A stretch of DNA of 63,858 nt, counting the filler, from Reclinomonas americana ATCC 50394 (Eukaryota): NCBI GenBank assembly GCA_048213135.1. It is 7 parts of 3 records of this genome, joined end to end, with 100 filler letters (N's around TTAATTAATTAA, not from the genome) between each part and the next. Parts side by side here need not be neighbours in the genome. Positions count along the whole stretch, not along the records: positions 26,129 to 40,200 come from PS015215.1; 6 more parts are not named here. One strand, 5' to 3'. Of the stretch, positions 18,945 to 38,390 are shown piece by piece. The translations under genes were made by a program, and so were the position numbers. The notes under the pieces are model-generated. The model searched no databases. It worked only from the letters and a program-made list of their open reading frames with translations, and was not told the origin of the DNA. How positions within the stretch are numbered: position 1 is the first letter of the stretch; every line of letters starts with the position of its first letter.

Positions 18945-19051
18945 TTCTGCGNNNNNNNNNNNNNNNNNNNNNNNNNNNNNNNNNNNNNNNNNNNNTTAAT
19001 TAATTAANNNNNNNNNNNNNNNNNNNNNNNNNNNNNNNNNNNNNNNNNNNN

Positions 19052-19421: not shown

Positions 19422-22400
19422 ATGTGTGTGTGTGTATGTGTGTGTGTGTGAGTGAGTGTGTGTGTATCGGTTGGTCTCTGACGATTCATCACACTCACTC
19501 TTGGTACTCTCTCTCTCTCTCCCTCCCTCTCTCTCTCTCCCTCTCAGGCACAACACGCGGCATTTTTGGCCGACCATCCACCACAGAACGACGCTCAACT
19601 GGTGAGACTGCTTTTTTCCTCCCACTTTCCTCCCTTTTTTCTCATTGTGGAGTAGTCACCGGAGAGTCGACGACTGATGGCCGAGGCGCGCGTGTTTGCC
19701 TTCCCGCCCTTCCCACCCAAGACGTGGTTTACTCCGTCGGAGGCCGAGGTGCAAGAGCGACGTGCCAAGTTCGATGCGCTGCTGCGTGCGGTGCAGACGC
19801 AGCCGCACTTGGCCAACAGCCCCGATTTGATGGTGTTTCTCGAAGTCAATGTTGCGTGCTTGGTGGTGGTGAGGCTCAGAGCGCGCGGTGAGGAATGTGT
19901 GATGATGGGCTGGTGCAGGAGAGTCCGGTGGCGCATCTGTTGCGCATTGCACCGAGTCCGTTCCCGGAGGAGGAACAAATTCGTCGCAAGAAAACGTGAG
20001 CGCATTTTCCATCTCGATCTCTCTGTGGAACGTCACCACCTTACGTGCGCACGCTGGTAGGATTGTGCGCCGTCGGCTGCAAAAGTCGCTGGCTGAGTTG
20101 CAGAATGGCACGCTGATGGCGTCGTCGATCATGGCGGGAGGGTCGTCGATGAGCATGTCGCAGAGCGTCATGTTTCCGGTTGATGCGCAGGAGCGCTTTG
20201 CCGCCGCGTTTATGAAGACCGAAAAAGTGAGTGGCGTTGCGATTCCTCGCCATCGCAAGCGTGGCTGACTTGGTGTGCACCGAACAGCTCAAGTCGAGGC
20301 TGCGCCGCCTCCAAAAACGCGGCGATAGTTTCCTCTGTGAATTGGTCGCCTTCAGTCCCGCACCACCAGCAGGCATGTTGTTTAATGTCGCGCTGTTCCT
20401 CACGTTGTTTTTTTTGGCTGACACACGCATGCAGAGGAAATCAACAAGACGCGTCACTTGGTGCGGCGCATCGACCCGTCGCAGCACAGTTTTGTGATCT
20501 CGGTGTACGACGGATGCATTCTGTGTCGCGTCTACCACCCGCAGCGAGTGGACATGCTGGCCGATCGCGCGGTGATTCAGCACGTGTTGGACACTCCCAA
20601 CGAGATTGTCACGCTCCCGTCGGGCACTGGCGAGCCGTCAGCATCGGCTCTCATGATCTCCACCATTCGTGTCACCAGCGGCGGCCGACAGACTGCTGGT
20701 GCGACGGCAACGACGGCAGCGGCGGGTGCTCACCCTCTTGCCGACGATGATTGGCCGTTTGACGATGAGGACGAGGACGACGAGGACGATGGCAAGGGTG
20801 GTGGACCATCGCGGAGCACCCTAATGTCGTCGGATTTCGAGCCAGTGGAGGATTCGACCGAGGTCACACCGACTCCTGCTACTGCTGCTGCTGGTGCTGC
20901 TGCTGATGGAACCGGTGCTGCGTCGGCGGCGGCGAGCAAGGCAAACGACGATGACGACGAGTGGCAAGTGGTGGACGAGGCGGCCGTGGTGATGGTACCG
21001 AGCGCGCCGGCGAGTTTGGCCACCGTGCCGCTCGATCAGTCGGCGGTGGTGCAGACGGGCACCTATTCGATTCACCTCAATCCGCACCCGTCACGAGGTA
21101 CGATGACGATTGCTTTTATCTTGCCTTCTTGTGTCATGTGCGTCGCTGATGCACGATGCGCAGCGGTGGCTCGACCGGGTGAAGAGGCTCTCTCGCCGCG
21201 ACGCGTGCGAGCTGTTTTCGACTTTAACCGGTGTCCCATGCCCAAGTTCTGGTTGTTCCTGGACCAGTTGTTGAATGTGAGCAAGGAGCGATGTGAGCTG
21301 CGCGCACAGAGGAGAGGCGATGTGCCGGGGGGAACGTCGCGAGTGTCCATTGAGTGGATTCCGCTGTCGCTGCCGCCGCTCTCGCAAGTCCTCGCCCCGC
21401 TCTCCGACGGCTCCGTGACGCACTCGAGTTGCGTTCTGCCGGTCGTGCAGATATAGTCGTTTTGTGCGCTTACCGCCTATGATACACGAAGTCGTGTTGG
21501 TGACCGACGACCATCCGATCGACACGGTTGGTCATCTTGTCTTCCCCTCTTTGCTCTGAAGTCAACTCATGTGTGCCTTGTAGTGGATCATGACGCTGGA
21601 GACGCTGTCCGGAGGCGAGCTAGTCGACACCATGCGCTTCATGCGTGAAGAGCAGCGGGATCGCTACTGGAATGGTGAGTTGTTTTGCCCCCTTCCTGTT
21701 TCGTGCCATCGTCGCTCCTCATCCGTCATCGCGGTTCAGTGATCGACACGTTGCGCGACATGGAGGGTAAGCACGTCTGCGTTGCACCACTTCTGATGTC
21801 GTGACTACTCACAATTGTGTGTGCAGCATTGCGGAGCTCCAAGTGCAACCTGGAGAGCGCGCGTCACCAAAGCCTCCTCGAGGACCTCTTTGAGGCGGTG
21901 TTCCCGGACGAATTGTTGACGTCGATGTACAATCCCAAGTGGAAGGTTCTGGGTTTCCAGGTACGTCGCGCCATATCGTGCATGAAGAAGGAACAGGATT
22001 AGCTCCGCACCAACACCATGTGATTTCGTGTTGCAGAATGCCAACGTGGCACGCGATTTTGAGACGTGCGGCGTCCTTGGTCTGCACCAGCTGGTGAAAT
22101 TCGTGAAGCGGTACCCGGAGTTGACGCAGCAGATGATCAAGCAGCACCATCGGTACAGCATTGTGCAAGCCAGCACTCATGTTGCGTCTCGCAGTTGGAA
22201 CGCTGCATGTGGCCAGCTGGCTGACAACGTAAATACTGTCGCAGATCACGGTGCTCCTCTGCAACTTGGTCGGCATCTCGGCTGGTGAGTCTCGCGCGCT
22301 TTCTTTCCCTTTTCGCATCGTGCCCATTTCCTGCTTGTCCATGTGCACAGAAATCTACCAGTACGAGTCGGGCGCACGGTTGCGCGACGGCAGCTTCAGC

Positions 22401-24040: not shown

Positions 24041-25961
24041 AGGCAGTCAAGCAGTGTGCTGACAGTGGTGGGGGGTGTGTCGCGCAGAAAGAGGCCGAGG
24101 ATGAGCGTCTGCGCAATCGGGAAGACGAGGCGCGGTGAGTCAATGGATTCTGTGATGTGATCATTCTTCTTTTGCTCATGCATGTCATCAGTGGTGCGGG
24201 TCGTGTGGTCAAGTATGGTGATATCGTCATGGTGTGTCGTCTCTCATGGCTCCGCCTGTGACGGCCTTGATTGCTGAGTGTCGAGAATGTGTGCGTGTAG
24301 CTTCGACATTTGCGATCTGAGGGATACATTACGATGTTGCGGAACCACTCGGAGACGGAAGCGCAGTGCTCGATGGTGCGTTTGCAGCAGTACTGTCACA
24401 CCGACAGTGGGTTTGTGCTGGAGCCGTCGGCGAAGCGGCGCGCAGAGGGCGACAAGGTGCGTTTCAACGATGCCAGTGACTGCAGTTTGTGTGCTCATGC
24501 CACGCAGGTTCGCATCGGTGACCCGTTGGTGCTGCTGAATTCGCGCACTCGGCTCGCTCTTCACGTATCGACGTCGTACATGGCGCGGGGTTCGTGCAGG
24601 CATGCTCTGCACGGTGACTCGCGTGCAACTGCGCTCACTATTCTGGTGCAGACAAACGACTGGAGGTCAACGCCTCCATTACGGCCACGACGTTCCTTCT
24701 CAGCCGCTACGACACCTTCCATTGGATGCGTCTGATCAACTCGGCTGGCACGGATCAGAAGCACCTGCGTTTTGGTGTGTGTGCGGGGGTGGCGCTGTCA
24801 TTTCCATGCTTCTACTGATCTCGTCGTCACGCTGCAGGCTCTGTCGTCACCCTCACGCATCCCGACATGGCCGCCCGCATGTGTATTCGCAGCTTCCGTG
24901 GCCGCCCACGAGGTGCGTGCCACTTGCTTGTTTGCCATCATCATGCCCCCTTTCTCACTTTATTCCGCCCAGCTTACGCACGACCCATCAATCCAGCTGG
25001 TGGTAGTGTGTCGAGTGCGGAGATGCTGGTCATTGAGCGGCAGGTGCAGTGTGTGTATGTACGAGAGAGAGAGAGAAAGGCGCGGCGATTCACGTTCGTG
25101 CGGTGTGGCACAGGATTGTACCAAGGGTGGACCGCTTACTTACGGCGCTCGCCTCCGACTTCGCCAATTCGCTGGCTCTGTGTTTCTGGCCGCCTCCCGT
25201 CGTGGCCCGCCGCGGCAGTCGTCGATTCTGCGTCACAGTGCGTCAGCTGTGTGCGATTGTTGTTTCGCTTTCTCTCGCACATGCGCTCAATATCTCCCTG
25301 TACAGACTTGGAGTTGCTCTCGCGTCAAGGTGCAAAGTCGCTGCCCGTTCGCCTACTGTGTACGTGCACTCCTCTCAACTCTCTCCGTGTGTGTGCGTGT
25401 GCAGGTTTGGCGGGGTACACCACGCGCGAACAATTTCGTCCGGCACACCAAGTGGAAGACGACGACGACGACGACGACGATGGAGTAGATGGTGGTGACG
25501 ACGAACATGACGCGGAATCGTTCGAGCCCGGCTCTGTTGTGGTCGAGAATCCACTGCAAGGCCGGCAACCGCCTCACCTCCTGCCAGCCCCTCTGGTACC
25601 GGTGGCGGCCGCCGCCCCTCGTGTCGTTCCTGGCCGAGCTGCTGTATTGCAGTTCTATCTCACCCCCGACCGGTATGACTGATTTGCGCGCCTCGTGCAT
25701 GCCGTCACATTGCCCACACTGTGTGCGCGTCTGTGGCAGCAATGATCCGGCCACGCTCTTCGAGTTTGGAGAGGGCGAGAGTCACCGAGATGGCGGCACG
25801 GACATTGAGGTACCCGCCGTTAAGGGTGAAGTCATTCTTTACAGCGTGCACTGTGATGCGTTTGTGGCATTGAGCCAACAAAGTATGGCGGAGACCGAAG
25901 TGCCGGGAGACGCACAGCCTCGCGCCAGCTCATTCGATGATCCAGCTCACACGTGCTTCTC

Positions 25962-26028
<67 letters not shown>

Positions 26029-29000
26029 NNNNNNNNNNNNNNNNNNNNNNNNNNNNNNNNNNNNNNNNNNNNTTAATTAATTAANNNNNNNNNNNNNNNN
26101 NNNNNNNNNNNNNNNNNNNNNNNNNNNNGTGTGTGTGTGTGCCACTTGCGATTGTCTGTGCTATCACCCTTCACCTTCGCTCACGTACCGCTTTCTGCGC
26201 CTACCAGCCTACCCTGACGTCCTCGTCGTTCGATGCGGCGTGGATTGTCGAGTCCATACCACGCCCCCTGTTTGCAAAAACCTACGCCATCGCGGTGGTG
26301 CTACCGGTACGGCTGTTGATAAAATCTACACACAATCCGCTCTCTCTCTCTCTCTCTCTCTCCATGTTTACGCTCGAGGGAAATTGGAACAGGACCTGGC
26401 GGTGTTGCGCGATGCGCTGGCTGTAGGTCGCCTGCCGGCAGAGGCGGGCGATGCGCAGCGCATTCACATGCTGGAGCGGCTGATCATCTCGTGCACGCAG
26501 AGCAGCGATCCGGATCCCGCCACACGCGAAGGTAGCCGCCCATGGCGGCGGCATGGTGTCTTTTTTCTGCACATCGCTTGCTGATTCTCTCGGCGCAGGC
26601 ATTCCGGTTGTCGACTATCAGATCATGCTCCGCGACCTCGGTGTGCTGGCCATTTGCTGCGACTGCGTGCGCTACTTGCGTCACATTATGAAGCCGCGCA
26701 ATGTGGCCGACCACGAAGTTGCCCCCCTCGAGTCGTGCGTGGACGCCGTTCCGCTGGCGCCGCGCTTTGCTCGATACGCCTTCCTCATCAACCGGCTGCT
26801 ACGCTGTGCCGTCATCGGCAATCTCATCAACAAGAAGCTGGCCATGCCAGTTCTCAACGACGTTAGCATCTTTGGCTTGATGTATGGCGGCCCTGACTTG
26901 CTGTTGGAAATGTTGCGCCTCCTTTGTGTTGTGTACTTGTGACTTGCTTTGGGTGTGCGTTCTCATCGGTCTAATGCAGTTTGCGTGATGCCCCCGAGGT
27001 GCTGGAGGAGTGGATCAAGCAGAGTGGTCAACCGGTAGAGTACTGGGTTTCCACTGCCGCACGTCGTGGCGTGCGGAGTCCGCAGTTACGTACGCGTGTG
27101 CTCGGCGCGGCTCCCATTTGGAGACCGAATGCTGATACTGTGGCACATGCAGATTGTTGCAGATCTTTAATATTGCGTGCATTTCAAGACAATGGGTGGA
27201 CCTCGTGTTGCACTACAAGCTCGCGGGTACGAGTGAAATCGACACGACGATTCACAGTCACAATCAACGTCGCATTCTCGAGTCGTTGAAGCAACTCGAG
27301 GTGTGTTGCGGATAAAGTCATTGCTGTTGCTGTGTGTCGCGCTCATCACGCTCTGCTGTCTCGGCAGTACAATTGGGTGTTTATCCGCATGCAGGTGATG
27401 ACCGTTATTTCTGATCCTTCCATGCTTCTCGAGCGTTCCCCTCACACGCCTTCTGGGACTGCAGATCGGCGACGATGATCGCAATGTGCAACTCACATTG
27501 CTGGACGCGTCGGGCCGAGTTGAGCGCAACGACGTTTGTCTCGCTGACTTGGTTGTCGATGCGGAGAGTGCGACGTTGGTGGAGTTTCTCATTGCGCAAC
27601 TGGAGGCGTTTGGCTCACTCTGTGTCGTGCGTCGCTCGCATGTTTGTCATTTTTGTGTGCTCCATTCAAAGATCTCAATATTATGCTGCTGTGCACGCAG
27701 GGTCGTCAATCACTTGCGCCGTCTGTTCTCTCCGATTGGGTTCCGTTTGATGCACTGATGCGATGGTACTGCTTGCCGTCGTCATCCTGCTTGTGCTGCT
27801 TGCCTTTGTTCTCACCAACGCACTCGCAGCTCGTTTGACACTCGGCTTCCGACGCCGTTGCGAGCCGTTGCGTTCCACCATGTGTGACGCGAGCGCGTAT
27901 AGAATGCTCGCTAACAGTGGCACTGCAGGCGGCATGCCGGCTGCTGTGCGCACTCTACGTGGAGCAGGATCCATTCGAGCCAGTGCCTGCACACGTTCCT
28001 TCGCACGTGTGGTCTCAGGTGCCAAGCGTGCCGAGCTATGAATTCGACCAGAGACGACGACTTCGTGCGCTTGACGAGCACCCTACGCACCCGCTGGTGT
28101 TGGCCTCGCCAACCATTATCAACTTGGTGCAGGAGGCCTTGGTCTGTCATCTCACCTCTCACTCCTCCTCTTCCTGTCTGTGACTGACCGACTCGTGCAG
28201 GAGTTTCACTCGCGATTTCGCTGGGCCGATCGTTCCGGCAATCAGTGGGTGGCCGAGGTCTGTGGGGGTGTTCTCGAGCGACTGCAACTCCAGTTGACAT
28301 GAAACTGGCGGTTGCAGGTGGTGTCTTTGATCAATTCGTTGATCCGCCAGGGGTTTGTGGCAGTGCATGCGGCTGTGGACATTTTGCACATGTTGCGTCG
28401 CAGTGCCTTAGCAGATGCGCTCTGCCATTCTGGTTCTGTTTACTGACCGATTCTGTGGTCACACAGTCTGTGGGATGTAATGGACGACTCCAAGGACGAG
28501 CAATTCGGTCAGTCAATGTGTTTTCCCGAGAGTGAGAATGGCTCCACCAAGCTCACGTTTATATTGGTCTCTCGCGAGCAGACAAGGGCACTGCTCAACT
28601 GCGGTACACGTTCAGCGAGAATAGTGCCGTCATCATGCGCACACGACTGTTGTGCTTGCGTGTGATCAAGTTGCGTCCGATGGAGTTTGAGTGACTAAGA
28701 GGTGCCTACCTGATCCTCAAGCGCTCCTCTTTTGAAAGTTACACTCTCGAGCTGGAGAGCTGTCATCGCGTCCATGTGCTACTCCGGTGGGTCGAAATGA
28801 CTGCGCACATTGTTGACGAGCGACTACGTCTCACACTCGCGGACATGCTCGCAGATTCTTCAAGAGTCGAACCCCGATGCCGCCATTGTCCGAATTCATC
28901 GTTGTTACGTAACTGCAATCACCAGCAATTTTGCTAGCGTTTACCGTGGCTGATGTGGAACGATTCATGTGCAGAACTCATTTATCGGCCGCGCAAAGAT

Positions 29001-32000
29001 CAACGTCTTTACCACCCTAATGCGACTGTGCAAGTACCAGTGTGCCGATCTCCAAGCGGAGACGTTCCGCACGTACGTGGTCCTTCGGGGGTGAGTGTAT
29101 GACTTGTGGCCATCATCAGTACCCATGCGCGATCATACTCACGCGTGTGAGACAGGCGCATTCGACAAATGACTGCGCTCGCTCCCAGGACGCAACTGTT
29201 CGTGTCGCGGAAGACTGTCGAACTGTGGGAACTAACGCAGCAGGTGAAGCTTCGATTGGCACAGCTGATCAAGGGAAAGGAGCTGTGGACCAGTACCGAG
29301 CGTGTGCAGCGAGAGATGGAGTCGCGACTGCAAGTGGTCTCGCAAGGTTTGTTATTGTGATGTGCTGTGAGAGTTCGTCACACGCAGCTCTCTCAACGCG
29401 GAGGGCTTCGTGCAGCGCTTCATGGTTGCGATCTGCGTGACGCACAATCGGTTCTGGCTGCCACCTCGTTTCCCCAGTTCATTGTCGAGGTCTTCCGCGC
29501 CGACTTGTTGCGTGCAGCTTGCTGCGACAGTTTCTCGCTGAGCATGCCAACTAAAATTTGATTGTCGTGCAGACGAAGCACTCCACCCCCTCCAGCAGGC
29601 AGCAGCTTGGCATTTTGTTGCGTAGACTGCATCGGCACAAAAACAGCGTATAGTTCACCGTTGTACTCACCGTTCATTGCTGTCGATGCAGTGATGAGCG
29701 GAATGATTGCAATTTTGGCCATGGTACCGTGCTTGCACAACGCGGCTTGATTTCTCAGGAGCACTTACTGCTTCTCTCTTCACTCTGGTCTGCAGTTTGT
29801 TAAGAAGAATCCAGCGACGCAGGTGCTGATGGTCAACAATTTTGATATTCTGCTGCCGCACCTGGGGTGAGCCAATCGACAGTCTCGCTTCCGTTGTCGC
29901 ACACGATTCCTAACTCTTCTCTAATCATGCGCTTATGCAGTGCTGGTGTTGGTGCGGAGGAGTTTAGTTACGTCACCGGTCGTGGACGCTGCCCCCGACA
30001 TGTGTGCGCATGCTGTACTCACTTGTCGTTTCGCGTGCAGTGGTGGCGGTTTTGGAAGACAACCGTCGCATCTGCCAGGACATTGCGCCAGAGACGTACG
30101 GCAGCTTTGCAGATCTCATCCTCGCTCGAGGCTTCCTGCCAGTCGCGCTACGAGTGTTGCGAGTTGCGCCCTGTATTCTCTACGCACATCGTTTTTGTGG
30201 CGTTCACTCTCACGCGCTCTGCGGCAGACCACTGTTTTGTGTTCCAAACTGCCGATTCCGCGCAATCAGCGACTGGTGTTGCGGACTGTGCGTGCGCGAC
30301 CCGCACTGATCGTGAGTGACAGGAAAATCGCCTCTTGTGTGTGTGCCGACTGCAGAAAATTAACGTGACACGCGCAGGTTTTGTTTCGTGACAGCGCCGG
30401 ACGTCAGACGAGGTGCTGTAGGGACTTGGGGAGGCTGTTGCGAGCACGTGTTTCTCGATACTCAAACTGTGTGCACACAGACGCGACCTCATGCGTGCCC
30501 TGGACAACCGTCTCAACCCCGCCACCAGTTTGCTGACGTACCACATTGAGCTGTTGCTGTTGTTGGCAGCCACCGCATCTGGCGAGAACGACGACGCGGA
30601 GGTGCTGTGTCAGGATCTGCTGCCACTCGAAGAGTGCGTGGACATGTTTGTGGAGCCGGGAACCCTGGTGGAGGTGCACGATGCGCTGTTGAAATTCATG
30701 GAGGAGGTGAGGCGGTTGTGCTTGTATCGCAGTCTCTTGTTTTCACTCTCATGCTAACGATGGAGATGTAGGTGTACTTGATGACTGTTGCGGCTTGCGT
30801 GGAGTGCTTGCTACTTGGACTTGATGTAACGATTGTGGATTGCTCAGGAATTATCTGTTGATCCCATCGCAGGCACATGCCGTGAGCGTCGGCGATGCGC
30901 TCCGTCGCCTCCTGGAGTTTTTGGTATTGCAGATTGATGAGCTGGTGAGCTACAGCCGCGCTGGTCTTTCAGCGTCGGCGAGCGACAGTGGAGCTGGTGC
31001 AGACATGCACAGTCCGTCGTCCGCGGCAGCAGCATCGCCTCCTGGCAGCCCAAACGAAAAGTGCGTACTCTGGCTGCACTTCGTTCTTCACGCATCACTG
31101 TGTGCTCATTCCGCTTGCTGGCAACAGGCGGCCTCTACTGACCCGCGCCTCAGAGGACACAGGCGAACCCTCGTCTTCCTCGGCAACCTCGTCGCTTGTT
31201 GACGACAGCAGTCGAAGGAGAGTCACTCTTCTGGCGACAGGCGAACGACTCATCCAGGCGCCGAGTTTCCGCGAGGCTCGGCAGTACGTGATTGCTCGGC
31301 TCACCGGCTTCCTTCGCCGATTCTTCAGCGAGAGCACGCTGTCGGATGTGTTTGTCGGGTACGTCATGCATGTTGACGACGTTGGCGTGCGCACGTGCAT
31401 GGGTGGGAGAGACTCATCGTTCCTGCGTAGACGCCACCAGGATATGTTCCACAATCTGACACGCGCACTGCAACAGCTTGCCGCTGTGGCCCGCAGTCAG
31501 CGTGAGTCGTCGGTGATTGAGAATGCTCTCCGCGCGCTCCACCAACGCGGTTGGGTGCACCGCGGCTTCACTATTCCCAAGGTCTCTTCGTACACTGGCG
31601 TACACACGCAGCCCCTTCACTCGCCGCTCATTCCATGGAACACACACACAGTGGCAGAACGACTCGCGTCTATCAAACACGCCAAGTGGCCGTATTGTCG
31701 GCTCCACCACAGTCGACTTGACCAGCGACGTGTCGACCAACATGCAGGAATCGGCTGAGACCGTACTCAACGGCGACTGGCGTCAGTTCCTAGAAGACAA
31801 TGTCGGCGACTGGTCCGCACGACTCGATGCACCGTGGGAGCAGGTACGCGCGTGCCTCGGTGGCGTCGGTTGTAGCGGTGGATGTATTTATTTGGCTATT
31901 TGGTGCAGTTGATCGAGCAGGTGCTGGAAACTCCTGGATTTGTAGAGTCGATGGTTACCGGTGGCCCGTGCGTATTTACCTTACTTGTGACCTTTTCCTT

Positions 32001-35000
32001 GTCGGTCGTTGTGTGCTGACGGCGCCACTTTTGGTAGGGCTTTTTACTTTTTGGAACCACGAGACCCGGCAAAGGTCGAGCAGCTCATTTACATTCAGTG
32101 CACGCTGTTGGAGCGCATTGCTGCTGTCGGGGAGCGTGGTCAGCAGCGCCTGTTGGACGCCGGACTCGGTGCGTAAGATTGTGACAGGGGCACGAAAAAG
32201 AAATCTACGGCCATTGATGACTAAACGACGTGTGTCTTGTGCCTGCAGTGTTGTATGTGCGTTCGGAATGACTACGGCAAAGTGAGGTGGGATAGCGTCT
32301 AACTGGGGGTGTGCATTGCAGTGTGTGCGTGGCATACAGCAGACCACGTACAACACCGAACTCTTGCGCATGATTCAGCTGGCCAGTGCATTGCTGGCGG
32401 GTGGTTATCAGCCGTCGCAGAATGGGTTTCTGCGAGCTATGCAGGAGCGTGACGGGCTGCTGCTGAAGCTTCGCGACAGACTTCGTGCGGCCGCGCAGTC
32501 CATGGAAGACCAGCGGGTGCTCGACAATGCTCGACAAGAGAGCGTTGCTGGCGACGATGACGAGTTGCGTGCGATGTATACGCTTGTGCTGGTGTATGTT
32601 CGCGGCTCTAATTCATGTGACCTACGAAATAAAACAGCACACAAAACGCCGAATCACCCGCGGATCTGAATGCAGACGTGGACTTGTTCCTCATTCGCGA
32701 TTTCCAGACCAACATGGATACGGCTACGTCTGTGTTGCGGTTCCTCCAACTCCTGTGTGAGGGGCACAACAGTTGTGTCGATCCCTGCTGCCGCTGGAAA
32801 CCTAATATAATCATTCACTCATCATTTTTCTTGGCAACCGCAGCCGAAGTGCAGTCATTCCTGCGCGTGCAGCCGACGGCTCGCCGCAGTGTGGACATGC
32901 TGGAGGTATGTGGGGGAGATGTGCAGAAAGCTGGGTGACGTGCGCGATGACCATGCACCGTGCAGGAACTGGCGAATGTGGCAGCGCTGTTCGAGTTGCA
33001 CATGTCGGCGGGCAATCTGCCGCTATTTGTGCAACTCTTTGACACGGTGGCCGAGATGATGCAGGGTCCACATCAAGAGAACCAAGTTACGAGTTTTGTG
33101 TAGAGGTCCATGACGCGCCTACTCTGAATTTCCCATTTTCCGATAGGTGGCGGCGCTGACCAGCGGCCTTCCGTTCCTGGCCAATCGTGTCATCACCACG
33201 TTGGTAAAGGACTGGCTGGCTCCACCATTTGTTGCTGTGCAGCAAGCGGCAATTAACATGCTGTTTGCGATGCTCGAGGGGCCGACAGCGCACACCGAGA
33301 ACGCTGTCCGTCTCCTGGAGTCTCTCGATGTCGGGCGCATCAGTTGAGCGTGGCTGCGATTCATTTCTCTGCTCTGTCACGGAATGCTTACTGTCGTGTC
33401 GGCGCGATTGTTGCAGTGTCGCATGCGGTGCGCGTGCATCAGCTGTACTCGATGGCGCGCCCGGGCAGTCGCAAGAAGCGCCGTGGCATCACGCCAATGC
33501 CGTCGATCATGGAACTCTCAGTGCAACGCAACCACGCGGAAGAGTTGGAGGCTCTCGGTATCAGCTTGTATTCGTTGCTTCGACGGATGGAAGATGTGCG
33601 ACCAAGACTCCTGGATGAGGTGCGTGCAAAGGCGCAGTTTTGCCGACAGTCGCTTCATTTACTCACCCTGCAAGCAGTTGTGCAAGGCCGCGGGAAGTGA
33701 GCTCACGGGACCTCGACCTGGAGACCTCTCCCTGCAGCTGTTCCGCGACCGTACCGGTTCTGTGGAAGTGTTGCGCGGCGGCAACATTGAGAAGGTGAAG
33801 CGCGTGCTCGTGTGTATCGGAGGAAGAGCGTATGTTGTTGTTGCCTCACTCGTGTTGCGCACGCTGTGCAGCTGTACTACCCCATCCCGCGCAATGTGCA
33901 CTTGCTGGCTGATAATGTGTATGAGGTTACGTCACGAAGTGTTCCGTTGTTGCTGTCGGTTTGTCTGTGTTGCTCACATTCTGCTCTGCAGCACTGGCAA
34001 ACGACAGTCAATCGCGAGTCGCCGACACGAAAGGCCGAGGGCCTGGTCAATCAAGTGGGAGCCTTTTATGATGAGCTCGCTCACGCGGTATGCTCGGGAA
34101 AGCAAAGCCCGTCCACGAGTTGCTGTGCAATCGCAAGTCTCATACGTACTGTGCCGACAGGCGTCATTGGACTCGTCGCGCATTTTCCGTCCATTACGGC
34201 GGTATTACCTGCCGGGGCACAATCTGCTCATCGTAATGGGCATCATCCTCAACCTGCTGACGTTGTTTGGCTTCCAAGTGGAGACGTACGACGATTCCGG
34301 GACAGTAGTGTTGCGTCGCGGTATTGGGGAGACCACGCGGTGCGGATGGTGGTAGGAGCATTGACACTTGTCAACAGAAACAGCAAGTGGCGCGACTCGG
34401 CCCTGTATGCAGTGGTGTTAGCCCTGGCGATCACGCAGCTCACGATTACAGTCATCATGACCGTGGTGTACAGTTGCGTGGGCGACGGCTGTGGCCAGTG
34501 CTTTTTAAGGCGGCGGTGGTGACACTTCTTTGTCCTTTTTCTCGTAGTCGTTTACGAAGGCGTGTTGAGATGGCGATACGTAGTACGGATGCGAAAGCCG
34601 TCACTGCCGCTGGTGAGTGTGCGTGCACGCCTTTGACGAAATTCAATAATAGCTGACGAGCTTCGTGTTTCAGCGATACTGGGAGACGGTGCCCCGCAAC
34701 GCCAAGTACTACCTCAAGTACACGGTCTGCAGCTGCCCTCGGCAATCGCATTGTATCATTGTTGACACCACTGGCCTTCATCGCAGGGCATTCTCCTGTC
34801 GCAGCCGACATTTTACTTCCGACTGGCGTACATTGTGTCGTTGCTGCTGGGCATTACTGTGCATCCAGCATTTTGGTCATTTTTGTTGTTTGTTGCGTTT
34901 TTGTTTTGTTTCGCCAAGCACCACCACCATGTCTGTGTCCTTCACGTTTGCGACTCACTGGCGACGACGCGTGCAGGAAGTGGTGCGGTGGAGCAGTGTG

Positions 35001-36244
35001 CTTCTCAACGGTGCGCCTCTGCCCTGTGGGTTGTTGTCGTGCGCGTCCCGCTCCTCACGCGTTTCCATCTGCTGCATGCAGTGCTGCGATCGGTCACCTC
35101 CAATGCGCGCTCGCTGATCACGACGAGCCTGTTCGGCCTCATGCTCATCTACGTCTACGCACTTCTGTGGTTCATTTTCGAGAACGACTACATGCAGTTG
35201 GCCACCGGCAATCCAGACGACCCGACGAATCATCTCTGCGACACGCTCTTCTCCTGCTTCATAGCTCTGTTGGACTTTGGATTGCGCTCATCGTCGTTCT
35301 GGGAGGGCCTGTTTGCCGCCAACTTTAATGCGTTTTCGATCGTTCTGCGCCTGTCGTTCTTCATCTTCATCATTGTCATTGTGTTGAACATGATCTTTGG
35401 GTGCGTCGAGATTCAACTGTGTGTGTGTGTATGCATGTGAATCTTGGTGATGACTAACTGGTGGTGTGGCTGCCTGTTGTGTGCAGTCAAATTCTCGACA
35501 CGTTTTCGCAACTGAGAGCGGAGCGTGATGCAGTTCTCAACGACCGTCGCAACGTGTGCTTCATCTGTGGTCTGGAGCGCGGACTGTTTGATCGCGTCGG
35601 CAAAGGTTTGTGCGGGGCGGTGAAGGTGTGCCAGAGTGCGTCTACAACAGGGTGCCCATGCCGCGCGTGCAGGTTTCGCAAATCATCTGCGACACGAACA
35701 CAGCATTCATGGCTATGTTTTCTTTTTGATGTACGTGGCCACCAAGTCTCGTGATGAACTGACAGGTGTGTATGTATGGTGTGCTGTGTTGACAGTGGAG
35801 ATGTATTTGCTCACCTGCCACACATCCAGGTCCGGAGCAGGAGATTGCGGACAAGGTGAGACGCATTTGTGTGGCGGTGGAATGTAGAGGGTGAAATGCC
35901 TGACTTGTGCTGGTGGTTGTCGTCGTCGCAGTTTGCCAGCGGAGACATTAGCTTTATGCCACTGCAACGGGCGCTGGTACGTGACGATGCGTGTGCGTGT
36001 CGGGTTCGGTTTCGGTTTCATGGATCAGCGTGTTTTGTCGTGTTTGCAGGTGTTTGAGCAGATTCGTGTCGGCGACGTGGCCACTGACAAGGGCACTGGC
36101 GCCGGTGCCGTGTCGAAGACACTGCGCCGACGACCTGGCGCCGGCAGCGATGACAAGAAGAAGGAGCGAGCGGACAATGACGACGACGATGACGGCGGCG
36201 GCGACGACGACTACGACGACGATGCCGACGACCGGGAGAACTGA
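23543..36244 (+). CDS. ITPR: Inositol 1,4,5-trisphosphate receptor / ryanodine receptor family Ca2+ release channel (very intron-rich; crosses the gap at 26029-26128)
   Basis: Collinear IP3R motifs: FLNYGD...HPPPSFADSCFVVCPLQPVTAQ (suppressor domain); YGDIVMLRHLRSEGYI...RAEGDKVRIGDPLVL (MIR); YHIELLLLLAATASGENDDAEVLCQDLLPLEE (RIH); LRFLQLLCEGHN..VQSFLRVQ and MMQGPHQENQ (RIH-associated); HPAFWSFLLFEVV..LLNVLRSVTSNARSL (TM region); FFIFIIVIVLNMIFGQILDTFSQLR...CFICGLER...HEHSIHGYVFF...ELTGPEQ (S6 and linker). Confidence 0.93.
25963..26141. repeat. (GT)n microsatellite flanking a gap inside an IP3R intron
   Basis: GT repeats on both sides of the gap. Confidence 0.9.
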
Positions 36245-36395: not shown

Positions 36396-38390
36396 TTATG
36401 GATGCCACAAGTGTGGCTTTTGATCTTGCGGCCACAGAGATCGCTGCGGCACAGGCTGCTGCGGCTGAGGTGGAGGGTCGGAATCGACTGCCGGATCGCG
36501 GATATCCAGGTTGTGCATGCCGACCTCCACGTCCACCAGATCCTTGTGCTTCAGCTGCATGGCGCGACACGAGGCTCTCAGTGGAGACGGAGAAGAGTGA
36601 GATGAAAGATGACGCACCGTCGTGTGTCGCTTCAGATCGGCCTTGGTCATGAACTTTCGTCGACATCCACGAGAGATGCACGAGTACTTTTTCACGTCAC
36701 CGCCGCTCACCGGGGTCGTCGGCGACGGTGGCCTCCTGCGTCGCGAGTTCGCCGACGGCTGATCAGCCGCCACCATCACCTCATCGCTGTTCATGTTCGC
36801 ACTCTGCCTGTTGTCCGACAGGGGTGGAGACGACATGCCGCTAAACCTCGCTCCTGTCACCGACGTGCATGTGGTGGTGGTCGACGACGACGCCGACGAC
36901 GCCGACGACCCGAACTGTGGCGGGGAGAAGGCACTGGAAGGCAGCGACGACATGCTCGCCACGGCACCGGCCGCGGCCGCCGGGGCAGTAAAGCTGTAAT
37001 GATGAGGATGATGATCAGCAGACGCACTGTGTTGGTGGTGGTGGTGAGGCGGCTGAGGTGGAAAGGCGCTGACAGTGTGCGGCGCCATTCCACTGCCATA
37101 CTGCGGCAGAGGCACCGTGGCCATCACAGCAGCCGTGTGCTGCAGTGCCGCCATGGGCGCGGCATCGGAACTCTGACGATCCACCAGGGCAGACAGACCT
37201 GGGCAACAGAGTGCGCTGAGTGAACAAAACAGAGGGGGACAAAGAGTGCACGTACCGCTGGCCTCTGAGAAGCCTTGCGCGGCACCGGCGGCCAGCATCT
37301 GCGTGCATGAGAATGACGCGTGGGGAGAGAGTGAGAGCGTGAGAGCGGGAGAGAGAGGAGATTTACCAGCAACGGCAGCTGCCCTGGTTNNNNNNNNNNN
37401 NNNNNNNNNNNNNNNNNNNNNNNNNNNNNNNNNNNNNNNNNNNNNNNNNNNNNNNNNNNNNNNNNNNNNNNNNNNNNNNNNNNNNNNNNNNNNNNNNNNN
37501 NNNNNNNNNNNNNNNNNNNNNNNNNNNNNNNNNNNNNNNNNNNNNNNNNNNNNNNNNNNNNNNNNNNNNNNNNNNNNNNNNNNNNNNNNNNNNNNNNNNN
37601 NNNNNNNNNNNNNNNNNNNNNNNNNNNNNNNNNNNNNNNNNNNNNNNNNNNNNNNNNNNNNNNNNNNNNNNNNNNNNNNNNNNNNNNNNNNNNNNNNNNN
37701 NNNNNNNNNNNNNNNNNNNNNNNNNNNNNNNNNNNNNNNNNNNNNNNNNNNNNNNNNNNNNNNNNNNNNNNNNNNNNNNNNNNNNNNNNNNNNNNNNNNN
37801 NNNNNNNNNNNNNNNNNNNNNNNNNNNNNNNNNNNNNNNNNNNNNNNNNNNNNNNNNNNNNNNNNNNNNNNNNNNNNNNNNNNNNNNNNNNNNNNNNNNN
37901 NNNNNNNNNNNNNNNNNNNNNNNNNNNNNNNNNNNNNNNNNNNNNNNNNNNNNNNNNNNNNNNNNNNNNNNNNNNNNNNNNNNNNNNNNNNNNNNNNNNN
38001 NNNNNNNNNNNNNNNNNNNNNNNNNNNNNNNNNNNNNNNNNNNNNNNNNNNNNNNNNNNNNNNNNNNNNNNNNNNNNNNNNNNNNNNNNNNNNNNNNNNN
38101 NNNNNNNNNNNNNNNNNNNNNNNNNNNNNNNNNNNNNNNNNNNNNNNNNNNNNNNNNNNNNNNNNNNNNNNNNNNNNNNNNNNNNNNNNNNNNNNNNNNN
38201 NNNNNNNNNNNNNNNNNNNNNNNNNNNNNNNNNNNNNNNNNNNNNNNNNNCAAAGCGCACAGCCTGTCGCGGATTGCCGTGCGCCGCGTGTGGGAGAGGA
38301 GGTGGTGCGGGTGGAGGGCCGGGTGCGCGTGCACTCTGAAACATGAAACCCATGCCCATGGAGGAGCGCGGCATGCCCGCCTGCCGCCAT
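36396..38390 (-). CDS. C2H2 zinc-finger protein, probable transcription factor (N-terminal part interrupted by gap; first exon ~38335-38390 tentative)
   Basis: YSCISRGCRRKFMTKADLKRHTT|LKH matches C-x4-C-x3-F-x5-L-x2-H-x4-H. H/S/P/A-rich low-complexity region upstream; TAA at 36396-36398. Confidence 0.7.
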   Translation of the reverse strand: MAAGGHAALLHGHGFHVSECTRTRPSTRTTSSPTRGARQSATGCALXXXXXXXXXXXXXXXXXXXXXXXXXXXXXXXXXXXXXXXXXXXXXXXXXXXXXXXXXXXXXXXXXXXXXXXXXXXXXXXXXXXXXXXXXXXXXXXXXXXXXXXXXXXXXXXXXXXXXXXXXXXXXXXXXXXXXXXXXXXXXXXXXXXXXXXXXXXXXXXXXXXXXXXXXXXXXXXXXXXXXXXXXXXXXXXXXXXXXXXXXXXXXXXXXXXXXXXXXXXXXXXXXXXXXXXXXXXXXXXXXXXXXXXXXXXXXXXXXXXXXXXXXXXXXXXXXXXXXXXXXXXXXXXXTRAAAVAGKSPLSPALTLSLSPHASFSCTQMLAAGAAQGFSEASGTCTLCPPLFCSLSALCCPGLSALVDRQSSDAAPMAALQHTAAVMATVPLPQYGSGMAPHTVSAFPPQPPHHHHQHSASADHHPHHYSFTAPAAAAGAVASMSSLPSSAFSPPQFGSSASSASSSTTTTCTSVTGARFSGMSSPPLSDNRQSANMNSDEVMVAADQPSANSRRRRPPSPTTPVSGGDVKKYSCISRGCRRKFMTKADLKRHTTVRHLSSHSSPSPLRASCRAMQLKHKDLVDVEVGMHNLDIRDPAVDSDPPPQPQQPVPQRSLWPQDQKPHLWHP

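Follow-up and report, generated by a model that had tools for sequence, protein, structure and literature searches.

A diverged IP3R/RyR-superfamily channel gene of Reclinomonas americana with an aromatic–glutamate sequence at the selectivity filter

We have identified an apparently intact and intron-rich gene for an intracellular channel of the IP3R/RyR superfamily in Reclinomonas americana ATCC 50394 (assembly GCA_048213135.1), in which the glycine-rich selectivity filter is replaced by a serine-, aromatic- and glutamate-bearing sequence. The gene lies in a window of 63,858 nucleotides, by which we mean the whole stretch of DNA analysed, made of seven parts of three records of the genome joined end to end with filler. 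GGG(V/I)GD is the accepted pore signature of IP3Rs and RyRs, and single substitutions there lead to human disease through loss of conduction. Where animal channels have GLRxGGG(V/I)GD, the R. americana channel has S-S-F-W-E-G, followed by a luminal loop of only 10 residues between filter and S6. The superfamily is known, and a small set of diverged relatives carries the same general type of filter, here called W–E, of which this one is a more extreme form. We think it somewhat better than an even bet that the protein forms a tetrameric cation channel regulated by Ca2+, and that its pore has an alternative filter in which aromatic residues sit behind the loop and a glutamate ring serves as the ion site. 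Selectivity or conductance would then be altered relative to animal channels and, in this particular protein, probably weakened.

The filter is encoded within a single exon, as the first-pass annotation of this DNA had proposed (the stretch it quoted from CDTLF onwards begins at 35237, for which it gave 35236). Conceptual translation of 35081–35401 on the + strand is free of stops and yields 107 residues; AG stands at 35080–81 and GT at 35401–02, and the nearest of the N runs mapped across the window is more than 1.9 kb away. A sequence search of the PDB with this exon found 51 distinct sequences at E<=1. Metazoan IP3Rs (ITPR1–3; 6uqk, 3jav, 8tkf) were the best matches, with IP3R3 (6uqk) at E 3e-10 and IP3R2 and IP3R1 at about 1e-9 to 5e-9, and RyR1–3 followed at about 1e-5. 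Because of these matches we regard the pore exon as a real feature and not a chance motif. The pore piece also matches Pfam Ion_trans (E 7.2e-7). An AlphaFold2 model built from a 63-row alignment (mean pLDDT 84.7, pTM 0.73) has helices at residues 9–33 (S5), 56–68 (pore helix) and 84–106 (S6), with coil at 69–83 and a pLDDT of about 66 at the filter. In Foldseek comparisons this model resembled the pores of IP3R3, IP3R1, RyR1 and RyR2 at TMq 0.68–0.82; the best structural match was 8tkf_A (E 9e-5, TMq 0.72), and the pore fold of RyR1–3 was alike at TMq up to 0.82.

A HMMER search of the pore exon against 1.84 billion cluster representatives, which are by construction less than 50% identical to each other, matched 223 library proteins at E<=1e-3; all filter and residue counts below are from the best 150 of these 223 matches. 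The best match, P0002, is 45% identical (E 3.4e-11), and therefore the library holds no close relative. Canonical filters of the form GG(V/I/L)(G/A/S)(D/E) occur in 103/150 rows. The 47 that deviate comprise 17 with GD(I/V/L)G, one residue shorter, 8 with x(F/W/A)(W/F)E(D/N), which is the W–E type, 5 with a P(V/I)W-type filter and 17 others. The GD(I/V/L)G rows form a clade of their own (8/8 in a 166-column tree, SH-aLRT 94), and the five P-(V/I)-W rows have loops of 6–12 residues. The GD(I/V/L)G, P-(V/I)-W and W–E filters therefore indicate several alternative filter designs in the IP3R/RyR superfamily. Thus the conservation of GGG(V/I)GD that the first-pass annotation assigned to the family holds as an animal hallmark and for the 103 canonical representatives, but it is not universal.

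Published accounts describe more than one kind of filter in protists. GGGxGD is conserved in parasite homologues (Prole and Taylor 2011, PMC3194816), and oomycete channels have GGGIGD or GGGLG(G/S) (Zheng and Mackrill, PMC7399828). In Paramecium, Ladenburger and Plattner (2011, PMC3213138) described Ca2+-release channels (CRCs) with variant or unrecognisable filters and left permeation open; CRC-V has a shortened loop from the pore to the sixth transmembrane domain (TMD6) and a shifted filter, and many members of CRC groups I–VI have no IP3-binding region. The Paramecium channels are thus a precedent for variant filters in protist members of the superfamily, and the W–E motif is not spelled out in the text of that paper.

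The eight W–E rows are P0004, P0010 and P0075 (GFWED), P0012 (GWWED), P0020 and P0061 (SFWED), P0046 (SAFEN) and P0143 (GFFED). Their loops between filter and S6 are 10–11 residues long, apart from P0061, a fragment in which the loop is cut. Loop length could be measured in 99 canonical rows; it is 15 residues in 67 of them and 10 in just one. Every W–E row has the glutamate and a W or F before it, and the next residue is Asp in seven and Asn in one; since pairwise identity among these proteins is below 50%, the invariant Glu and the Asp/Asn after it point to constraint. The R. americana filter has the aromatic-aromatic-Glu core (F-W-E) and the loop of 10, with Gly in place of the Asp or Asn after Glu. 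The rewritten filter noticed in the first-pass annotation is thus a real deviation but not a private one. Among the five full-length W–E rows scanned, P0020, P0046 and P0143 carry the full Pfam set of Ins145_P3_rec, MIR, RIH, RIH_assoc and Ion_trans, and P0010 and P0075 have no Ins145_P3_rec match. P0010 comes from a EukProt transcriptome assembly, and its pore region used as a query found 71 matches, mostly fish IP3R1–3 and arthropod RyRs. Two further searches added nothing specific to the R. americana channel: the pore exon found no match at E<=1e-3 among proteins of 189–2000 amino acids, a size range below that of full-length relatives, and a search of protein clusters found only generic Ion_trans clusters.

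Outside the filter, several hallmarks of the superfamily are in place. With residues numbered by their position in the 107-residue pore exon, the near-invariant C53 and C59 (150/150 relatives each), G67 (147) and R69 (133) are kept, as are F93 (125), N103 (128), F106 (128) and G107 (141). The S6 gate and the hinge glycine are retained, the latter followed directly by Gln, with QILDTF in the next exon, and the Cys2-His2 zinc site after S6 is present as CFICG and, one exon further on, HLRHEH. By alignment, 3/3 residues of the cytosolic Ca2+-activation site are also kept, in LCEGHN, AEMMQGP and ELTG; they correspond to rat IP3R1 E1978, E2042 and T2657 as given in PMC9522344. With metazoan IP3Rs the channel thus has in common the order of Ins145_P3_rec, armadillo/RIH_assoc, six-transmembrane pore and Cys2-His2 linker, the Ca2+-sensor Glu, Glu and Thr, and the S6 motif N-x-I-F-G-x-I-(I/L)-D-T-F. 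It differs from them in having S-S-F-W-E-G for G-G-G-V-G-D, a loop five residues shorter, and changes of R86, D90 and D76.

These last three changes also set it apart from the W–E channels, which are themselves uncharacterised. Gly76 stands where 95/150 relatives have Asp and 25/150 have Glu, and where the W–E rows have Asp (7) or Asn (1). Ser86 replaces an Arg found in 108/150 relatives and in 7/7 W–E rows with a residue there. At the column of Arg90, Asp is found in 101/150, Glu in 15, Gln in 13 and Asn in 6, and Arg is not among the six commonest residues; W–E rows have Asp (5), Asn (2) or Ser (1), so that Arg replaces Asp or Asn in 7/8. The aromatic before G-L-R is Tyr in 8/8 W–E rows and Phe here. 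On reanalysis, therefore, the earlier description of the pore was borne out in its details: the replacement of the glycine run by Ser and F/W, the shortened luminal loop, LR in place of (Y/F)D before S6, Gln beside the gate and the intact CFIC..H..H zinc site.

The luminal mouth, counting positions 76, 86 and 90 together with Glu75, would carry a charge of about -2 per subunit in the W–E relatives, -1 in IP3R1 and about 0 in the R. americana channel. With the terminal filter Asp lost and Arg replacing the Asp before S6, the mouth should carry less negative charge than that of any relative examined, and on this basis both cation conductance and selectivity are predicted to be lower. How the filter Glu relates to the animal signature depends on the alignment, as HMMER places it under the Gly preceding Asp in IP3R3 (ungapped) and under the Asp itself in IP3R2 (with a one-residue gap). 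If Glu lies under Asp, as in the IP3R2 alignment, the W-E-D of the relatives mirrors RyR G-D-E, and the R. americana channel keeps one acidic ring, as IP3Rs do. In RyRs, the adjacent acidic residues D4899 and E4900 at the luminal mouth have an analogue in the E–D pair of the W–E group.

Kinship of the channel to the W–E group is likely, judging from trees that were both quick and built without filter and loop columns. The first tree comprised the 106/150 matches that cover the whole C-terminal query, with 44 partial rows dropped (166 columns). Six W–E rows formed a clade (SH-aLRT 92), and the R. americana channel (branch length 1.04) and P0010 were without a resolved placement. In an approximately unbiased (AU) test on this tree, holding eight W–E rows including the R. 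americana channel as one clade gave a log-likelihood 2.0 above the free tree (p 0.554). The second tree combined 33 full-length rows with the exon pieces of the R. americana gene, aligned piece by piece with 752 residues placed (34 rows by 734 columns). Here the channel fell in a seven-row clade (SH-aLRT 90) with two GDIG rows, P0051 and P0105 (support 87), and four core W–E rows (support 100); P0010 was a long branch joined to P0093, a join that was flagged. Holding the channel with the four core W–E rows cost 1.1 log-likelihood units (p 0.403). Over the 734 columns its identity to W–E rows is 27–31%, and to any full-length row at most 32%. The first-pass annotation had suggested looking for a clade that shares this filter type. 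Eight of 150 representatives do share the motif, and the AU tests do not reject one clade, but the last filter residue differs and kinship is not proven.

We also weighed whether F-W-E and the short loop arose separately from an ancestor with a canonical filter, for example in the P0002 lineage, a question of origin and not of function. The highest pore identity is indeed to P0002, whose filter is GGVGE, the free trees do not join the channel directly to the W–E core, and the last filter residue and the R86/D90 pair are unlike those of all W–E rows. Nevertheless, the motif core and a 10-residue loop occur together here, and a loop of that length is found in one canonical row of 99. The constrained single-clade tree is equal or better in the first AU test and is not rejected in the second, and the 734-column tree places the channel in a clade with the W–E core. 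Separate origin is accordingly an unlikely account, in our estimation, of how this filter came about.

If the filter works, we propose the following mechanism. The protein would assemble as a tetramer like its relatives. Its conserved S6 gate, F...L in NMIFGQILDTF, would be driven by the zinc-finger linker and by the Glu, Glu and Thr of the cytosolic Ca2+ sensor. The side chains of the two filter aromatics would lie packed at the back of the loop, and the cation site would consist of four Glu carboxylates arranged in a ring, in place of the glycine-carbonyl stack and Asp of animal channels. Conductance and Ca2+/monovalent selectivity would then differ from those of animal channels. The presence of aromatic-aromatic-Glu with a short loop in 8/150 diverged relatives favours a working alternative filter over a dead pore.

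Several observations weigh against this reading. Published filter mutants support the earlier statement that the filter Gly and Asp residues set conduction in animal channels. In IP3R2, the pore is dead once the second glycine of the GGG run is replaced by serine (G2498S; PMC7939385); in the coordinates of the PDB-search alignment the position of G2498 is Ser in the R. americana channel and in 3/8 W–E rows. IP3R1 D2550A is non-conducting (PMC6700175), and the filter Asp is the residue lost here. In RyR1, D4899 and E4900 form a luminal cation site, in D4899Q the K+ conductance drops to 164 pS (from 801 pS) and the permeability ratio PCa/PK falls from 7 to 1, and G4898R conducts K+ and not Ca2+ (PMC2668181). 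Additionally, D76G, R86S and D90R occur in no W–E relative, the alignment of the filter Glu is ambiguous, and P0002, the top relative by pore-exon score, has a near-canonical filter. The first tree does not place the channel, the second pairs it with two GDIG rows and not directly with the W–E core, and both contain long branches. The motif strings of the W–E filters have no relevant mention in the searchable literature text, which excludes figures and bioRxiv supplements. Finally, the gene is poorly resolved over its N-terminal third, where N runs interrupt it.

Some of these observations would be expected of a pore-silent or regulatory subunit, which folds and assembles as a non-conducting protein or a minority heteromer partner of a canonical paralogue, and acts as a Ca2+-sensing scaffold or dominant modulator. 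Such a subunit could bear Ser where Ser is pore-dead in IP3R2, and Gly at the filter-Asp position (in the ungapped alignment) where D2550A is pore-dead in IP3R1; the lineage-specific replacement of Arg86 by Ser and of Asp90 by Arg would remove net negative luminal charge. A non-conducting role also has precedent, since pore-dead IP3Rs still support contacts between endoplasmic reticulum and mitochondria (PMC6700175). It is harder to explain why an idle pore would keep aromatic-aromatic-Glu in common with eight representatives less than 50% identical to each other, and why the gate and the hinge Gly have been retained along with the Asn of S6 and the cysteines of the pore helix. A search of both strands of the whole window with the family profile found no second family member, canonical paralogue or alternative pore exon at E<=1e-3. 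On this balance we consider a silent subunit unlikely, although it deserves to be taken seriously.

A bolder proposal is that W–E filters define a functionally separate class of release channel, with a Glu/Asp ring in an aromatic cuff, nearer in principle to Cav or TRPV5/6 channels than to glycine-carbonyl filters. The R. americana protein, its second acidic ring lost and a luminal Arg gained, would then go a step further, either as a pore-silent scaffold or as a Ca2+-sensing channel whose selectivity is weak or not cationic. We regard this proposal as speculative and rather improbable.

The evidence for an intact gene comes from exon order as well as from the pore. A family profile built from 33 full-length relatives of 2000–3100 amino acids, searched against the whole window in both orientations, gave nine matches at E<=1e-3, all on the + strand within the gene span (Table 1). 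The open reading frame (ORF) pieces of this strand are collinear with the profile from position 479 (at 24301), which is residue 123 of vertebrate IP3R1 (P0076), to position 2598 (at 35767), across 11.7 kb. The C-terminal model joins six exons in frame across introns of 71, 86, 67, 64 and 76 nt, all GT..AG, and the exon after the pore completes a Gly codon begun in the pore exon across the 86-nt intron. The mini-exon before S5 presumably reproduces the spacing from S4–S5 to S5 of IP3R1. At the 3′ end, ELTG-PEQEIADK-FASGDISFMPLQRAL has the spacing of the TG-x-E-x-Y...(F/W)FP...RA(M/L) tail of P0010, P0020 and IP3R1. An alternative C-terminal model with VEMYLL... after ELTG was dropped, and the PEQEIADK and FASGDISFMP exons fit the family tail.

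The N-terminal part is less clear. Pfam matched Ins145_P3_rec (PF08709) at 24301–24472 with 37.7 bits against a cut-off of 23, and RIH_assoc (PF08454) on piece 32633–32935 with 32.1 bits against 28.5. No Pfam domain was recognised in 15 of the 20 scanned ORF pieces, and none of the 20 matched MIR or RIH (RYDR_ITPR); weak profile matches lie at 26447–26918, among short exons and N runs. N runs fall inside the gene at 26029–26072 and 26085–26128, and no clear profile matches were found between 24.8 and 26.4 kb, where N runs are present.

A decaying pseudogene or an assembly artefact, with the odd filter reflecting relaxed constraint, would fit a draft assembly with 21 N runs in the window, a weakly recognisable N-terminal ligand-binding region and the want of any library protein above 45% identity. 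It fits poorly with six C-terminal exons in frame across GT..AG introns of 64–86 nt, a stop after the usual family tail, and exon pieces collinear with the family profile over 11.7 kb. Near-invariant pore residues, Ca2+ sensor and zinc site are all kept, and the rewritten filter, besides requiring many base substitutions, coincides with a motif conserved elsewhere. We therefore judge decay or artefact to be very improbable.

The gene is not obviously an IP3 receptor in the functional sense. We take the IP3 contacts to be R265, T266, T267, G268, R269, R504, K508, R511, Y567, R568 and K569, which we located on P0076. In the weak alignment of the alpha-domain piece (E 0.0015), 1/6 alignable contacts is kept, R511, and the other five are replaced (R504 by V, K508 by I, Y567 by N, R568 by L and K569 by I); the region of the beta-domain contacts (R265–R269) was not located in the exon pieces of the window. 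All 11 contacts are kept in 4/33 full-length relatives, all with animal-type filters, and in 0/5 W–E rows, such that the W–E channels and the R. americana channel are alike without the canonical set. From these residues, canonical IP3 gating appears unlikely. The first-pass annotation called the protein an IP3R-family channel; its placement in the IP3R/RyR superfamily stands by sequence and fold, but the label IP3R is too narrow because the alignable IP3-contact residues are mostly absent. Neither is the protein a typical RyR. The gene spans about 11.8 kb including introns, which is too little to encode a RyR-like protein of about 5000 residues; neither a SPRY nor a RyR-repeat domain was among the Pfam matches of the ORF pieces scanned; and S6 reads F-G-Q where RyRs have an I-Q-G type sequence.

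Table 1. Exons and segments of the IP3R/RyR-superfamily channel gene in the window, with the evidence for each
Feature	Position	Strand	Evidence
IP3R/RyR-superfamily gene, minimum span, many short exons	24301..36057	+	Collinear profile matches, last exons, stop
N-terminal Ins145_P3_rec (suppressor/beta-trefoil) exon piece	24301..24474	+	PF08709 E 1.6e-9; profile 479-537, E 5.5e-8
Exon piece, alpha-helical part of IP3-binding core	26565..26918	+	Weak alignment, E 0.0015, indicative
Central armadillo-region exon piece	30476..30709	+	Profile 1552-1623, E 1.3e-13; tblastn 40-43% identity to P0020 and P0143
RIH_assoc/ARM3 exon piece with LRFLQLLCEGHN, first Ca2+-sensor Glu	32663..32773	+	PF08454 E 1.1e-7
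ARM3 exon piece with AEMMQGPHQENQ, second Ca2+-sensor Glu	33008..33094	+	Profile 2029-2057, E 3.3e-7
Mini-exon directly before S5, EVVRWSSVLLN	34977..35010	+	In frame with pore exon across 71-nt GT..AG intron; proposed model
Pore exon: S5, pore helix, filter, short luminal loop, S6	35082..35400	+	Profile match E 2.8e-34, AlphaFold2, Foldseek
Selectivity-filter segment GLRSSSFWEG	35279..35308	+	Translation and alignment
S-I-V-L-R segment	35336..35350	+	Ser at column with Arg in 108/150 relatives; Arg at column with Asp in 101/150
Exon: S6 end (QILDTF) and zinc-site Cys pair (CFICG)	35487..35605	+	E 2.3e-14
Exon: zinc-site His pair (HLRHEH) and ELTG with Ca2+-sensor Thr	35673..35765	+	E 1.4e-11
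Short exon (G)PEQEIADK	35830..35855	+	GT..AG introns of 64 and 76 nt; P0010-like spacing to (F/W)(F/M)P motif
Last exon (FASGDISFMPLQRAL...), stop codon 36055-36057	35932..36057	+	Weak profile match 35929-35979 and tail motif

Other genes were recognised in the window. Upstream of the channel gene are a PX domain piece at 19656–20057 (+, E 2.4e-7) and, on the same strand, an ELMO/CED-12 piece at 21986–22285 (+, E 3.1e-10), which belong to one or two separate genes. A long ORF at 36396–37389 (-) converges on the 3′ end of the channel gene and enters an N run of 861 bases; this ORF abounds in His, Pro, Ser and Ala and contains a C2H2-zinc-finger-like stretch (Y-S-C-x4-C...H-x4-H). Further along are a protein-kinase domain fragment at 41457–41957 (-, Pfam Pkinase E 9.4e-9) and an HSP70 gene of mitochondrial/DnaK type in three ORF pieces at 45757–47494 (-, Pfam HSP70 E 7e-75, 8e-44 and 5e-46). 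The best library matches of the HSP70 pieces are about 80% identical DnaK and mitochondrial HSP70 proteins of bacteria and algae. The strand opposite them scores as Pfam 'NAD-GH' (E 2e-79), which we take to be the well-known spurious family antisense to HSP70. The 21 N runs of the window include large gaps of 817 and 861 bases, as well as seven pairs of 44-base runs with 12 bases between them (for example at 18952–19051, 26029–26128 and 40201–40300), a pattern suggestive of masking or scaffolding rather than of biology. Microsatellites of the (GA)n and (GT)n types are common.

If our reading is correct, the IP3R/RyR scaffold can accommodate more than one design of filter, as the conserved aromatic-Glu sequence in diverged and otherwise intact protist channels would indicate. 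The W–E channels would then offer a natural test of which pore properties, such as conductance and preference for Ca2+ over K+, need the glycine run. The R. americana channel, in which luminal acidic residues have been lost, could separate the alternative-filter reading from that of a silent pore. More generally, these findings call for caution in annotating protist 'IP3 receptors', as domain architecture alone is insufficient to identify them as IP3-gated Ca2+ channels.

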